From NCBI GenBank assembly GCA_964106645.2, contig OZ067052.1: a stretch of 64,000 nt of DNA; one strand, 5' to 3'. Position 1 is the first letter of the stretch; each line of letters opens with the position of its first letter. The position numbers were made by a program, and so were the translations under genes. Positions 1,076-13,246 of this stretch are shown piece after piece. The DNA is from Podarcis pityusensis (lineage: Eukaryota). The notes beneath the pieces were generated by a model. It did not search any database. It saw only the letters and a list, made by a program, of their open reading frames with translations, and was not told the DNA's origin.

Positions 1076-4000
1076 ATGGCAGGTGCGCCGCCGCCTCCCG
1101 CAGCGCCGCCTGAGGCCGGCCTACAGGTGAGGGAGGGCGAGCCTTTCGCGGGCTGGGTGGGTGGGTGCTCAAGGGGATCCGGCTCACGTCCCGTTTCTCT
1201 CCCCACCTCGTAGACGCGGATCGTGGAGAACCAGCCTTACGATGAGAGCCTGGACGTCAACGAGACGGAGGACGTGGCCAGCATCTACGCGCCCAGCCCT
1301 CCGCAGCCAGGTATGGGGGGCTGGGACAACGGGGTCAGTGCGGGGCGCCGGGGGGTCGCCCCCTCCGCCTCTGACTCGGCCCTTCTCTCCTGCCACCGTC
1401 TCAGGCCCTCGCCGCGTCCGCTCCCAGCACAAGAGCCTGGCCGAAAACAGCAGCGAGGAGGACGACGAGGAGATACTCAAGGTACCCACTGAACAGCAGC
1501 CTCCCCCCCCCCCCGCCCCCCGTTTCCTGCCTGGAGGGCCAAGGAAGCAGTGAGCTGGGGTCGCGGTGGTGATGGGCCGAGGACCGAGTTGGCTCCCACT
1601 CCTTCGCTTTCCCCCTCTCCCCCAGGAGAAGAAGGCCTCCCAACTGGCCTCCCAGCCTCGTTTCAGTGGGAACGAGGTAGAAGACGAGGACGACGACTCT
1701 TCAGAAACGGACTCTGATGACGATGACGACGATGAAGAGCACGGCGCTCCTCTGGAGGGGTATTTGCCATTTGGGGAGGGGGAAGTTGGCTAGGAAGGGC
1801 ATGTGCTTGGCTGCCAATATATTTGCTACTTGTTAGTAAGCTTACATGCAATCGTGCCCTTGTTTCCAATAGGCATGGCGTGTGCCAGCCTTGAAGACTA
1901 GACTGCCCAGGAACGTGCTTTCTTAAGTCGATTGATTTTGGTGGGGCAAGGGATGCCTAACTCCGCCAAGAATCCAGTGAGCAAAAACAAGTCCTGGAGC
2001 CTTCCTTGGCCTTCAGCCTCTTTCACCCACACACTCCCGGCATAGGCCAGTTGGAAAGTTGAGAAGGTTCCTGTGTGATAGCAAAGACAGTTCTTTCAAG
2101 CATTGAAGTCACACCTTTTAAGTGAGGCTTTGCTGGCTTCCAAAGGTCCCCATATACTGACATTTGGGTAGGATATTGGGTTAGGGAACCTCTGGATCGC
2201 CAGATGATGCTGAACTACAACGCCCATTATACCTGACCATTAACCACACTGGCAGCTGGGGCTGATTGGAATTGGAGTCCGGCATCCTCTGAAAGGCCAC
2301 CGCTATCCCACCTGTCCTGTAATATAGCAGCCAGGTAGAAGATGGTTGAATGTCCAAGCAGATCACGTGTCCCAGGAATATAGTGGCTTAGTTAGACCAG
2401 TCTGTTTGCTGTTTTTGGCACCACCCACCCCTACTAAACTGTGTGCTACATTAAATGTGTATCTGTATGAAACTTACAGGTTTTAAAAAATGGAGTGTGA
2501 GAATAATGCAGTTGCTAAGATTGCAGCAGGTGTGGAAGAATGTAAACCTTCCCCGATGCGGTCTTATGGAAGGTGCTATTTGCTTCAGGAGGAAATATCT
2601 TTGGCCCATAGGGGTGGCAGTCTTGTTTAAGGGTGGTGGGGTGGATAGGGGAGAGTGAGAATGCAAGCTGGCTTTTCTTTGTCTCTCCTTGAAGTCAGAC
2701 TCTCCCTCACCCTTCCTTTGAATACATCCTATTTCCATTGCCTCCTGCCCAGCCTCACCACTGACTCTTTCCCCAGGGCATACAACTCAGCAGATTATGA
2801 CTACCTGCCAGTCTCCCTGGAGATCAAGGAGCTTTTCCAGTACATCCGGAGGTGAGCGGTAATGTGGATCTTGGCCGCATTGTGGGCAGGCGTGTCTCTT
2901 TTCAGGCTTCTGCTCATGGTGTCTGCTCCTCAGGTATTCTTCACAAATGATTGACCTGGAGCACAAGCTGAAACCTTTCATTCCAGACTTCATTCCAGCT
3001 GTTGGGGACATTGATGCCTTCTTAAAGGTACTGCATCCCTTCTGACACTCCTTTACATGCAGCACTGGCTGAGAACTGCCACGCAGGACTCTTTCCCTGC
3101 AATGTCCATAGAGAACTGTCGCCTCTCTATGGAGGTGCAACAGGGCAGCACTGTCATTGCTTTGTCTCCATACCCACAGTCAACAGTGCTGAAAGGTTAG
3201 CTGCTTTGCAGAATCCTTGTAGATAAGTGGGAATAATTTTTGTTGCCCTGAAGTGATGCTTATGGCTTTCCCACTGAGCATCTGCTTGGCCACTGAGAGG
3301 ACAAAATGATGAACTAGAGGGGCCTTTGGTGTGACAGGGCAGTAAAGGCTTCTTTCAGATCCTTGGCTTTCTCAGCAGGCAGGGCCACATTTTGTTTGTT
3401 ATAGTGATTGACCATTCCCAGCAGAAACTCTCTTGACTGGTCTTATACCTGGGTGCGTACATGAAGAATAGAATAATGGGAACTCTCACATGCAAAGGAC
3501 ACCCTGGCTTGTTTCTCATAGGTTCCACGGCCTGATGGGAAGCCAGATAATCTTGGATTGCTGGTGCTGGATGAGCCATCGACCAAGCAGTCCGACCCCA
3601 CTGTTCTCTCCCTCTGGTTAACGGAAAACTCTAAGCAGCACAATGTGGCCGTAAGTGGGAGAGGGTGTGTGTGTGTGTGAAGCGACTCCTCTTGGATGCA
3701 AGGCAGCCCTTGGCTCTGATGAGGAGGCACATTGGGGCATGTTCTGGTCTCTGTTTCCAGCAGCAGATTAAAGTGAAGAGCCTGGAGAATGCTGAGAAGA
3801 ATCCCAAAGCCATTGAGAGCTGGATTGAGAGCATCAGTGAGCTGCATCGCTGCAAGCCCCCAGCTACAGTCCACTATGCTAGGTGGGCCTCTTGGAGGGA
3901 GGGATGAGGGCAAGGGCAAGGGCAAGGCCTGCCAGCACTCAGCCCCACCTTTGCTCCGTGCTGGGGGTGGGGGGAAGAAAGCCACTCTGCAGATGCACTC

Positions 4001-4876
4001 TCTGTGTGGAAGAACCATGGCCATTTCAAGCTGCTCCCTGGTATTTCTTCCTTGTAGGCCCATGCCTGATATAGATACGCTGATGCAGGAGTGGTCCCCT
4101 GAGTTTGAAGAGCTGCTGGGAAAGGTAGTGTCTGCCAACTGTCCTCCTCTCTAACTTCTAGTTTTGGCCTGGCCTAAGAGAGGGGGCTTGTCAGCAGGAG
4201 GGAGAAGCTTGTGGGCCTCTAAAGAGATTCATGCAGAGAAAGAGAGTACTGAGCTGACCTTTCCCTCTCTGCTTTTCAGGTGAGCCTTCCCACTGCAGAT
4301 ATTAACTGCAGCCTGGCAGAATACACAGACATGATATGTGGTGAGTGCCCTTTTGCTGTTGTGGTGCTCACCTATTCCAAGCCTTTTAGGGGTAGAGATC
4401 TGCTCCAGTCGGTGTTGGAATTGGCCTCATCTCAAAATGCCCCTCAGCTATGCACCACCCAGCAAAAGTCTCCTTGCTTGTTGGAATCAGACTATATAGC
4501 CATTATTTTTTCTCTTCAGCTATTCTGGACATTCCTGTCTACAAGGGCCATATCCAGTCCCTGCACACCCTTTTCTCCCTCTACTCGGAATTCAAAAATT
4601 CACAGGTAGGAGACACAAGGATCTGAAGAGCAGCAGCTCTGGTCTGGTGTCCATGTTCATGTGGGGGCACCGCTGAACGGATTGCTCCCTGAGTCTTTAC
4701 CCCAGCCTCACCCGGAGTGGCCTTGCCCTAGAGCTGCCTAAAATGATGGTGTTCTCCCTCCCCCCTTCTCTCTCCTGCAGCATTTCAAGGCTCTGGCTGA
4801 GGGCAAGAAGGTTGCAAGCCCTCCCTCCAACCCCCCCTCACAGGCTGGCGAGACAGACATCCTGAGCTTTACCTGA
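1076..4876 (+). CDS. IFT46: Intraflagellar transport protein 46 (IFT-B), ~362 aa, 12 coding exons
   Basis: Exons 1076-1126, 1214-1310, 1405-1481, 1626-1759, 2777-2851, 2934-3027, 3522-3650, 3761-3882, 4058-4124, 4280-4340, 4520-4605, 4781-4876; all GT-AG, total 1089 nt. Recognisable peptides: SETDSDDDDDDEEHGAPLEGAY, KLKPFIPDFIPAVGDIDAFLKVPRPDGKPDNLGLLVLDEPSTKQSDP, KSLENAEKNPKAIESWIESISELHR, PMPDIDTLMQEWSPEFEELLGK, HFKALAEGKK. The first two exons are less certain than the rest. Confidence 0.93.
2176..2315. mobile_element. Degenerate short hAT-like MITE (squamate repeat)
   Basis: Shares gaactacaac-cccat...gggctgat-gga-ttgtagtcc motifs with copies at ~58290-58428 and ~62085-62200. Family assigned by recognition only. 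Confidence 0.45.
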
Positions 4877-5095: not shown

Positions 5096-5101
5096 ATTAA
5101 A
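5096..5101 (+). terminator. Probable IFT46 polyadenylation signal (ATTAAA)
   Basis: ATTAAA 220 nt after the stop codon, followed by T/GT-rich sequence. Confidence 0.6.
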
Positions 5102-5410
5102 GTTTTGCTTATAGTGCTACTTTGTCCTTGAAGGAGATTCACAGCTGTGGAGGGTTGGCTGCAGTCTGAGTTGTGGATGGACTCAGAACAATTTCAGAGT
5201 ACTGTGGCTATTTGGGACTCTTAAAGTGTCATTTACCAGCTCAGACACTGGCCAGCTCAGCCCATTGAGCGTTGCCAAATCTGTTAGTGGTGAGCAGACA
5301 CAATGTGTATTTCCTTCTGAGCCCTGCCTCTTTTGCCTGGGCTTAGGCTTTGGTTCCCTCCATTGGCTTTCTGAAGGGGAAGGACAGGGACGGCACTTTG
5401 ATCACAGCCA

Positions 5411-5416
5411 TTTATT
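5411..5416 (-). terminator. Probable TMEM25 polyadenylation signal (AATAAA on minus)
   Basis: TTTATT on plus, ~460 nt downstream of the TMEM25 stop codon. Confidence 0.6.
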
Positions 5417-5877
5417 TGTAAAGTGCAGAAGCTACAAAGCAGCATGCTTCAGCTCAGTTGGCAGCAGCAGCAGCGCCGGGGCTTGCCAGTTTCCCGGTGG
5501 CCTGGCTGGTCCTCTTCATGCCAAGGAAGAGCCATCACATGCAGATTGAGCCATCCCTGAGGTTGGGAAGAGGAAGGAGGAGTGGGCCAACCAATGGCTA
5601 TAGTGGGAGGGACGTTCTTCAGGGGAACATGAGTCACTTGGTGGGCCTAGAGATATACTGCAGCGTGGGGTGGGGTGGGGGCAGTCCTTGGCAGCTGCAG
5701 GTCTTCCTTGGATCACAGTCATCAATATCCTTCTTTCAGGCACTGGGGCCTCACACATGGGATCTTGCTTTAGAGGTGCAAGGCCTCTTCCCTTCAGTTC
5801 AAGCTGCCTTGGAAGTCCGCCACCTCAGGACTTCCGCTGCTGCTCTTCACACCTGCTGATGGGTGCAGCAACAGCCC

Positions 5878-9910
<4,033 letters not shown>

Positions 9911-9969
9911 CGAATTCTGCATGCTCTGCCAGAACTGTCTGGCTGGCTCCTCCTTATTCCAAAGCAGTC

Positions 9970-10052
9970 TATCCCTGACATTCTTGCATTGCAGGGGGTT
10001 GGACTAGATGACCCTCGGGTGTCCCTTCCAACTCTACAATTCTTTGACTCCT
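9970..10052 (+). mobile_element. CR1 3'-terminal fragment
   Basis: gcattgcagggggttggactagatgaccctc...cccttccaactctacaattct is a typical CR1 3' end. Related short copies occur at ~19610-19675, ~30825-30880 and ~56920-56965. Confidence 0.6.
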
Positions 10053-10239
10053 GAGCTCACCCTGCCAGCGAAAGCTTTTGCCTTCACTCCGTCTCCTTTT
10101 GAGTTCCCACAGGCATCAGGAAGGCCGCCTTTAAAACACTTGGAGTTTAAGACTGGTGATTCTGAGAAGTGATGGGGTTTATGAGTGCTTTATTAGTGTA
10201 TAAAGCAGAACTTGGCCACATGAGTGTGTTTGGGGCAGG

Positions 10240-11035
10240 TCATCTTCTGCCATCAGGACTCCTAGATCTTTCCTGGTTAGTTCAGACCCCCTTAGCAGGT
10301 CTGTGAAACTTGGATTATTATTTTTCAATCCATTGTGCATCACTTTATACTTACTTATACAGAATTGCATTTGCCATTTTACTGCTCATTCACTTAGTTT
10401 GGAGAGATCCCTTTGCACAGATCTCGTGTGTTGTGAGGCCACACCAAGTGGGTCACAGAGAAGCTGGATTCCAGCTTAGGCTGAGCAGACGAAAAGGAGC
10501 ATTGCATGTGTGTCTAGACTAGGTCAAGTGAGACACCCATTTTATCAATTTCTACAAGTGCTCTGATGTGGCAGGAGAAAGGCAGGAGCCAATTTTTAAT
10601 ACGATACATATTTCTGGCCAGTCACATGCCTGTTCCTTTCTCGTGCTACATTGCAGCACTGGTTTTCATTTAGTAGTAATGCTAAGGCAACACTATGTAT
10701 ATTGCTCTGTTAATTGCCATTTTAGAATTAACAGCGTGCACTATTAGCAATATTAAGTATAAATTAAAAGTGAAAGTGGGTCCCATGTTGCAGCTTGGGA
10801 CTCAGAGGTGGGTCTTGGGTCTGGATCTGTTGAACAACACTGCTTTAGAGCTCCTCCTACTCCCTGTATGGTAATGTTGTGACTTGTATTGGTTTCCACC
10901 AGTTTTCCAGGAGCAGATAAACAAACAGGCTTGTAATTTCCCAGATCCCTTTTGAATCCTTTTCTAAAAGTTGGTGCTACATTGACCACGTTCCAGTCCT
11001 CAGGTAGGAAAGCTCATCTTAGGAACGAGCTACGT
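10240..11035 (-). mobile_element. Fragmented CR1 ORF2 (reverse transcriptase) remnants
   Basis: ORF 10179-10370 MQFCISKYKVMH...LRGSEL...RKDLGVL resembles CR1 MQFNVSKCKVMH...RDLGV. ORF 10753-10989 VNVAPTFRKG..DLGNYKPVCL...PGKLVE resembles CR1 ANVTPIFKKG..DPGNYRPVSL...PGK. Confidence 0.7.
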
Positions 11036-11279
11036 ATTGTTTCTCAATCTGAACCATTAATACAACATAAAATTACAATGTTGTCACAGAGATCTTTATT
11101 AAGAAAGAAACAAAGCTTATTAACAAAGGTTTTTCAGGGTGCTTAATTTGCATAGTTTATTCCGGACCGTAACCCGATGGAATGTAGTTTTTATATTATC
11201 CTTGGAGCTTGAAAGGTGGGGAGTAGCACCCCCAGCTTGCCTTTGGGAGAGAAATTGTAGGCTGAGCCCTCGTTTGTCC

Positions 11280-13246
11280 CTAGCGACACACTTTCTCCCC
11301 AGAGGAAGCCTCCAGCTGGGGCTCTTTGCTTGGGCCCCTCAGTTTCTTTATCATTTCGGAGAGCATCTGATTGCAGAGGGCTGCGTACGGATTCATCAGG
11401 ACCAGCTGACGACGGGCAAAGGCACTGCCCAGTCTGGCCGCTTGCTCAAAGTCCCTATGGGCCTCTTGCTCGTGGCCTTGCAAGCGCTGGATCAGCCCTC
11501 GCTGCACAAACGCCTGGCAGGCTACACGGCCAATGCCCCTGCTAAGCTGCAGTGCCATACCCAGGTCCTCCAGGGCACCTGACAGGGAGAGAAGAAATAC
11601 ATGCAAATGATGGAGGGGAACGCCATGGAACCTGCCTTGTGAATCATAGCAGAGATATTGCAGAAGGGGAAGTGGCAGCAGCTGTGCCCACACAGTGGCA
11701 CCATCTTCAGCATGGACAGAGTTGAAATGGAAAGCAATTGTTTTATTAAGATTGGGGATTGTTTCCAGTGGTTTGGGTTCCACTTTAGGTAGCAGGTTCT
11801 TAGCTCAGAGCTTTGATTCTCAGGGACCTTGTAGGGTTGGCTGTGCCATGGGGAGATGCCCCGGTAGGTGGGTTCCCAAGCAAGCAGCAGCACCAATACT
11901 GAGCCCAGAGAACAGCTGATGGGAAGGTCTCTGAAAAGCCCTTGAAGAGGACAAGGGATGTGGTGTTCCCTGTCCAGGGGGTTTGCTCAGTCCTCCTTTT
12001 GCTAGGCTCAGGCTACACAGCAGACATGGTGCCTGTCCCAGGCAGAGGGCCCCTCTGTCAATGCAGAAACGTGGAGACAGAACAGCACTGCCTTGCTCAC
12101 TTACTTGCTGTGTTGCCCTTGAGGCGAAAGGCCTGGGCCCGGTTGTTGTAGGCTGCGGCTCGCTCAGGGAGCAGCTGAATGGCCCGGTCAAATCTCTCCA
12201 GGGCCTTCTGCAGGTCTCCAGCTTCGGCAGCTTCAATGCCCTGGATCTCTAGCTGAGTGACTTGTTCCAGGAGCGCCGGGTCAAAGGTTGCTTCTGTCTC
12301 ATTATGAGGAGAAGCACAGTTTTGTTAATAGCTCCAGGTCAAGGGCGGGGGGACAGAAGACAGCTAGACTATATAGGTATGCAACCCCCCCTCCATCCTA
12401 CAGCCACTGGAACTTCCACTGGCCTCCAATCCAGTGCTAATTACACGGCTGACTACATTACAACTGCTAAAATGCAGCAGCTCAAGAGAGCCCAGAAATT
12501 TCTCAGGGACAAGGGGACAGAAAGCCTGTGGGGAAAAGCCCACCCACCTTCTCCAGGGCAAAGTGCAATGAATTGTGGTCAGGTGACTATCAGAGGTCAG
12601 GCTGCACCACCACGGACGTGAAGCCTGCAGAAAAAGGCTGGCAAGTTTCTGAAAGCAGCCTCCCCCCCACTGCAGACCAGGGGTGCCAACTTGAATAAAA
12701 TATTTGGGGGGCAGGTATAAACCCCAAGCCACCATAATCGATCACAAGACACAATTTGAATGGCAATGCCCATCAACTTTTGGGGCCCCAGACCCCTTCA
12801 ATATTTTATTGGGGGGGTGTCGAAGGGACCTTGGCCCCTAGGAGGAGTTGGCTCCTATGCTGCTGGTGGTGAGTGAGAGGCCCTCTCTTCCAGGGCCATG
12901 ATATGAGAGCCTTGTAAAGGCCTCCTTAATGAAAAACAGAGGGATTTGCTGCTGCTCCAATTACACAGAGGTGGGTAGGTGGGACTTTCCCCTTTGCAGC
13001 CCCTCACCATCCTTGAACCTCCACTTCTTGGCAGTCTGAAGCTGCTCTGCTGCCTCCGGGAGCTCAAGGTAGAGACAGACGATGCCTCCAGGAAAGTCCC
13101 TCTCCCCTGCCCCATCTCACGCAGAAGCCAAACTCACCTTCTCCATTGAGGGTCTCCTGCTCCTCCCGCTCATCAGAGAGGTCGCCAAAAGGGGAATTGG
13201 GGTGGAATATGCTTTGCAAAACTGCCCTGTCGTGTGCTGTTGCCAT
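11280..13246 (-). CDS. TTC36: Tetratricopeptide repeat protein 36, ~198 aa, 3 exons
   Basis: Exons 13246-13138, 12293-12105, 11578-11280; total 597 nt. Peptides [61 protein letters not shown] and [16 protein letters not shown]...[33 protein letters not shown] on minus at 11100-11095. Confidence 0.93.
12678..12859. mobile_element. Short non-autonomous DNA transposon (hAT-like) in TTC36 intron 1
   Basis: Imperfect terminal inverted repeats CAGGGGTGCCAACT / AGTTGGCTCCTATG. The flanks ctgcagac and ctgctggt match only partly as an 8-bp TSD. Confidence 0.5.

Follow-up and report, generated by a model that had tools for sequence, protein, structure and literature searches.

In Chlamydomonas, residues 23-44 of IFT46 bind ODA16 with a Kd of about 1 uM (Wang et al., 2025; PMC11879689). 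The same paper defines the motif Nxxx(D/E)E, shows that the exchange D33K abolishes ODA16 binding, and already reports the motif in IFT46 of zebrafish, Xenopus and C. elegans. The algal IFT46 N-terminus is required for ODA16 and outer-arm transport and dispensable for IFT assembly.

For the human proteins this interaction is reported to be missing. Wang et al. (2025; PMC11879689) describe the motif as absent from human, mouse and cow IFT46. They nevertheless find that human ODA16 (DAW1) has a conserved cleft, to which a chimera with the algal motif binds; an alternative via IFT74/81 failed in pull-down, and the coupling of human DAW1 to IFT is stated to "remain elusive". The absence of a human IFT46-DAW1 interaction is repeated in papers of 2024, 2025 and 2026, and had also been stated in the initial annotation of the DNA studied here. 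The authors of a 2025 review take it to prove that transport is species-specific, and a 2026 paper names the coupling as an open goal. Human DAW1 is also described as co-precipitating with IFT88 in HEK293T cells. From the 2025 text we infer that the negative human pull-down of 2020 used the annotated short IFT46.

A further body of work concerns the leader of the human mRNA. For human C11orf60/IFT46, a non-AUG start was predicted, with a 54-residue extension that contains NQTYDE (Ivanov et al., 2011; PMC3105428). Supplemental Table S3 of Na et al. (2018; PMC5749180) contains an acetylated 19-residue human N-terminal peptide spanning NQTYDE, identified by mass spectrometry, whose start is an ACG located 153 nt (51 codons) upstream of the annotated AUG and is matched by a ribosome-profiling start with a count of 44. 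In Fig. S4 of that study, the leaders of human, chimp, cow, rat and mouse all carry NQTYDE in frame; the three species for which its absence has been stated are among them. The start codon thus differs between the sources, AUA in the former and ACG three codons later in the latter. Protein-level support for the human long form amounts to one peptide from one study, in which 56 peptides were checked with synthetic peptides (PMC5749180). IFT46 is unnamed in the main text of both papers as far as available, and hence no function is given there. A review on irisin goes no further than naming the ATA start. In the supplements of Fedorova et al. (2022; PMC9789052) that were searched, which comprise all but two files, IFT46 appears only in a table of earlier predictions unannotated in GENCODE v35 and lies outside the conserved and ribosome-profiling sets. 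The supplements of the Fedorova addendum, of PMC11317171 and of PMC12718117 do not contain it, and the available part of the GWIPS-viz paper (PMC4832365) makes no mention of it.

The window considered here, a stretch of 64,000 nucleotides from the lizard Podarcis pityusensis, contains an IFT46 gene whose N-terminus can be compared with these systems. A 12-exon model at positions 1076-4876 of the plus strand, on which all of its features lie, has GT/AG ends at all exons and an open frame of 362 amino acids. Coding exon 1 (1076-1126) encodes Met1 to Gln17 and is Pro/Ala-rich and poorly conserved except for its last three codons, and coding exon 2 (1214-1310) encodes Thr18 to Pro49, the conserved block. 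Both are joined in frame to exon 3 (1405-1481), as the initial annotation had proposed for two additional exons with canonical splice sites. Exons 4-12 (1626-4876) encode an acidic linker and the IFT46_B_C domain, up to the stop codon, and an ATTAAA polyadenylation signal lies at 5096-5101, with a poly-A loose end at 5113 in one assembly (X1). The Pfam family PF12317 (IFT46_B_C) matches residues 121-331 with an E-value of 6e-99 and 330 bits against a curated cut-off of 22.2 (determined on the identical entry P0083); no Pfam family matched the exon 2 segment, and exon 2 was matched at one site in the genome.

The site of the annotated mammalian start Met is occupied in the lizard by a CTG (Leu61, 1437-1439), and the N-terminal segment in question comprises the 60 residues upstream of it, derived from exons 1 and 2 and the beginning of exon 3. 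After Met1 at 1076 there is no in-frame Met codon until residue 150, and the segment is therefore obligate unless the CTG initiates. A near-cognate start ahead of an annotated AUG, the mark of non-AUG extended proteoforms, is not what is found in the lizard gene, which starts at the plain ATG at 1076. Longer lizard starts were rejected, because the ATGs at 764, 808 and 972 reach stops before 1076 in the unspliced DNA. Some database models of snakes and lizards (P0002, P0005, P0006) start at the ATG at 764, whose frame stops here at 962; a sheep model (P0058) also uses a comparable upstream start. The sequence around this ATG (761-772) is presumably a YY1 site.

Splicing of both new exons is reflected in assembled contigs. 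The junction 1126/1214 is bridged in five of six RNA-like assemblies (X1, X6, X11, X13 and X14, from five studies) and the junction 1310/1405 in all six, and neither is bridged in the two DNA-like runs. These counts rest on eight of 24 runs with contigs from the same or related organisms; the RNA-like status of an assembly is a program's guess, and the contigs carry no information on tissue, level or start site. Intron 1 (1127-1213) is kept in one assembly (X5), which could represent pre-mRNA; the TAG of its acceptor, at 1211, reads as a stop in frame. Intron 4 (1766-2800), with a repeat near 2200-2240, is covered by contigs of several RNA-like assemblies, deepest in X11, which could reflect a retained intron or pre-mRNA.

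The predicted protein is identical at 362 of 362 positions to the GenBank lacertid protein CAI5795474.1, and the lizard extension is therefore already annotated. Five other lacertid entries (e.g., XP_034995349.1) are identical at 359-361 of 362 positions, with the extension matching over its full length. Lacertid isoforms of 362 and 361 residues likely reflect a tandem acceptor (CAGCAG) where exon 8 begins (3761-3763).

The conserved block contains NQPYDE (1229-1246, residues 23-28), a match to Nxxx(D/E)E in which Asp27 corresponds to the critical Asp33 of Chlamydomonas. Residues 17-38, encoded at 1124-1276 and spliced across intron 1, are the counterpart of the Chlamydomonas 23-44 peptide: the motif lies in the N-terminal region of the same protein, at the same, collinear position, with N-Q-P-x-D-E and the central Asp kept, and eight of 22 residues are identical by hand count. 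Residues 23-54 of chain D in PDB 8BD7 align to lizard residues 17-51; this alignment, at 9.6 bits, is weak by itself and is collinear within an orthologue, and it shows that the algal motif named in the initial annotation is real. The bare motif Nxxx(D/E)E is weak evidence alone, because a second match occurs at residue 91 in the acidic tract. In 100,000 shuffles of residues 1-60, it arose in 1.8%, and the fuller pattern NQx[YH]DE in 0.006%. Chlamydomonas Glu35 is replaced by Ser in the lizard and by Arg in placentals, and the lizard peptide would be expected to bind DAW1 by analogy. These observations support the view that the lizard segment corresponds, in vertebrates, to the peptide with which algal IFT46 binds ODA16.

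The presumed partner is encoded in the same genome. The DAW1 gene lies on another contig, with exon 1 at G000:C5:28587151, and 11 of its exons matched lizard or chicken DAW1 at 86-100%; a short internal exon and the terminal exon had no match. It was located via a short motif, and its name was confirmed by database matches and structures. A lizard DAW1 entry (P0131) aligns to the human and algal ODA16 structures, and the cognate protein is encoded with its N-terminal domain and WD40 propeller; the best lizard DAW1 database entry found is correct over residues 1-350. A search of representative sequences for DAW1 was dominated by unrelated WD40 proteins.

In the conservation of the segment, residues 1-14 show 48% identity among squamates and 0-4% outside them. 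Over residues 15-46, identity to the lizard amounts to 64-72% in the fish, amphibian, turtle, marsupial/monotreme and placental groups. In placentals, identity to the lizard is 65% over residues 15-46 against 35% over the adjoining residues 47-75 (five entries). The N, Q, Y, D and E of the hexamer are invariant in 38 of 38 alignment rows, hand-picked among extension-bearing entries, and the invariant stretch extends beyond the hexamer to residue 46. All 51 distinct matches of two segment-based searches carry NQxYDE (46 with Pro, five with Thr); the searches themselves selected for the segment, and this figure therefore shows range, not prevalence. The range covers sharks, rays, gar, a teleost, coelacanth, amphibians, turtles, squamates, platypus, marsupials and some placental models, and the conservation in other vertebrates on which the initial annotation had staked its claim was thus found from sharks to marsupials. 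No bird or crocodilian entry occurred among the 33 and 31 matches of these two word-based searches, a method that cannot prove absence. Judged by this comparison, the lizard IFT46 segment alone is ordinary and general in non-placental vertebrates.

The states of the two start sites differ among these groups. Sharks, coelacanth, turtles, platypus and marsupials have both AUGs. Squamates have lost the second one, with no Met at the site in the 14 of 14 entries printed, and can therefore make only long IFT46; in placentals, it is the first AUG that is replaced. Lizards and placentals have therefore diverged in opposite directions. All 16 marsupial and monotreme entries examined carry the motif, and 12 of them begin at the ancestral Met. 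Of 23 placental entries examined, four of which were assigned by likeness, 12 contain the segment, eight start at the short Met and three are otherwise truncated. Several of the 12 motif-bearing entries begin without a Met, as a model lacking an AUG would look.

The initial annotation had stated that the canonical human protein starts without this segment. The annotated human IFT46 start indeed lies downstream of it, but the placental leaders encode NQTYDE in frame, and a difference between lizard and mammal is therefore not supported. In five placental species the leader runs in one open frame up to the annotated AUG, the 22-residue binding stretch is nearly unchanged among these species in the printed alignment (PMC5749180), and the human 54-residue extension is nearly identical to the AUG-initiated platypus N-terminus (PMC3105428). 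The human extension is homologous to lizard residues 17-38, with 13 of 22 residues identical by hand count. The two differ in that an AUA or ACG start coexists with a strong downstream AUG in human, whereas the lizard uses an AUG. Inspection of the printed human mRNA by eye shows a purine at -3 and a G at +4 for both the AUA and the ACG, an in-frame stop that precedes the AUA by seven codons, and a four-codon uORF opened by two AUGs that lie out of frame within the motif codons. The annotated human AUG, likewise by eye, has a strong context, and the long form may therefore be scarce. Two substitutions distinguish the placental sequence: Thr stands in place of Pro in the motif, and Arg in place of Ser at the position that follows it. 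The Arg reverses a charge and, at the Glu35 site, faces the positively charged cleft, so that placental binding may be weaker.

Conserved non-AUG extended proteoforms have also been described for VANGL2, HDGF, EIF4G3 and STARD10, and leaky scanning would yield long and short forms alike in all of these cases. Unlike those proteins, IFT46 carries a known cargo-adaptor motif in its extension and has a plain AUG start outside placentals. Several single entries deserve mention. In two capuchin entries (P0043, P0081), a Met codon takes the place of the human ACG; both entries are of low quality, differ at many positions of the core and may be retrocopies. In a slow loris entry (P0042), the Leu that precedes the exon junction is a Met. 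For P0039, the long N-terminus was rejected as a real start, as the N-terminal half of this entry reads as the antisense of an exon of the neighbouring gene (compare L008 8721-8996); the entry joins the motif exon directly, without the exon bearing the near-cognate starts, and is likely a chimeric contig, with a hint of a leader isoform. No support was found in the literature, including the available part of PMC2064023, for a testis doublet of mouse IFT46, and this idea was dropped.

Taken together, the two exons probably encode the normal vertebrate IFT46 N-terminus, which likely docks DAW1, and placentals likely use a long form started at a near-cognate codon. The best reading of the compared sequences would thus be a pan-vertebrate IFT46-DAW1 handle, with a placental long form that is likely minor. 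According to this proposal, the Nxxx(D/E)E segment would dock DAW1 and thereby tether outer dynein arms to IFT trains. By analogy with the algal complex, residues 17-38 may lie in a basic cleft between the N-terminal domain and the propeller of DAW1, extending the sheet of the N-terminal domain while an acidic loop around the central Asp27 fills the cleft, and the opposite propeller face might stay free for dynein arms. In the lizard, every IFT46 molecule would bear the handle. In placentals, some ribosomes would initiate at AUA/ACG and produce a minor long form with the handle, and the remaining ribosomes would scan to the strong downstream AUG and produce a major short form without it; the human layout of uORF and near-cognate codons may tune the long-to-short ratio. 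That human IFT46 is reported not to bind DAW1 would then, we propose, come from the use of the short form in the assay. The initial annotation saw an ancestral module kept in the lizard and lacking in the annotated mammalian protein: the segment is indeed the counterpart of the algal one, but the lizard-mammal contrast appears to be an effect of annotation.

The strongest competing view, which follows the initial annotation, accepts a working handle in non-placental vertebrates and regards the placental leader segment as a weakened remnant, with DAW1 reaching IFT otherwise. We regard this as rather unlikely. Loss of the first AUG does coincide with the Pro-to-Thr and Ser-to-Arg changes, eight of the 23 placental entries start at the short Met and three are otherwise truncated, and IFT46 is not in the high-ranking conserved or translated sets that were searched. 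A remnant, on the other hand, sits poorly with a frame and block kept in the five placental species of the printed alignment, where the 22-residue stretch is nearly unchanged, and with a conserved block that outscores its neighbour in placental-lizard identity. Moreover, the peptide and the ribosome-profiling start come from human samples (PMC5749180), and the human DAW1 cleft is conserved and binds the algal motif (PMC11879689). The co-precipitation of DAW1 with IFT88 in HEK293T cells would allow another route, but a bridge via endogenous long IFT46 would presumably give the same result.

It is also conceivable, though improbable in our view, that the block is translated and chiefly binds a partner other than DAW1 across vertebrates. 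The invariant stretch running beyond the hexamer to residue 46 would suit such a partner. C. elegans, moreover, is not known to have motile cilia. In this species, too, the motif is reported (Wang et al., 2025; PMC11879689). Against another chief partner stand the position-matched homology to a measured ODA16 binder, with its Kd of about 1 uM and critical Asp, and the algal N-terminus, which serves ODA16 and outer-arm transport and not IFT assembly. The idea that the exons are part of a leader and not translated, or that their frame arose by chance within a CpG island, retains practically no credibility. The region is GC-rich, the bare motif appears in 1.8% of shuffles and intron 1 is kept in one assembly, but no other in-frame AUG precedes residue 150, the junctions are spliced in RNA-like assemblies, and conservation at the protein level extends from shark to mammal. 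Conservation and the absence of an alternative AUG already refute it.

Extending the preferred reading, that of a pan-vertebrate handle, to the mammalian cell, we lean towards the view that human and mouse DAW1 ride trains via a hidden near-cognate long IFT46 that constructs made from the annotated protein omit. The textbook "species-specific loss" would then be an annotation artefact, the AUA/ACG start would set the number of docking sites per train, and laterality defects or motile ciliopathy could result from variants in the 5' leader that are scored as non-coding. The lizard segment, the motif and the human extension were each already known; what appears to be new is the link of the mammalian IFT46 extension to the DAW1 motif, and no paper joining the extension to DAW1 binding was found in the open literature, a search that covered neither subscription papers nor bioRxiv supplements. 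The value of the lizard segment is as a pointer to its mammalian counterpart. If the long form binds, the question of DAW1-IFT coupling would be answered by one peptide assay. In that case, human IFT-B reconstitutions, structure predictions and rescue constructs based on the annotated protein would miss a functional element, and screens for variants in heterotaxy and ciliary dyskinesia would have to treat the IFT46 leader as coding.

The surroundings of the gene complete the description of the locus. The start codon of a head-to-head neighbour lies at 650-652 on the minus strand, about 420 bases upstream of IFT46, as an ATG followed by a GT donor, so that its first coding exon consists of the ATG alone; its further exons are found in the adjacent stretch (L008 4945-8902). 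We take this neighbour to be ARCN1 (delta-COP). It shares one CpG island with IFT46. Tail to tail with IFT46, open frames occur at 5400-12330 of the minus strand. They resemble, we assume, TMEM25 and TTC36, and the order IFT46, TMEM25, TTC36 is presumably as in the human locus.
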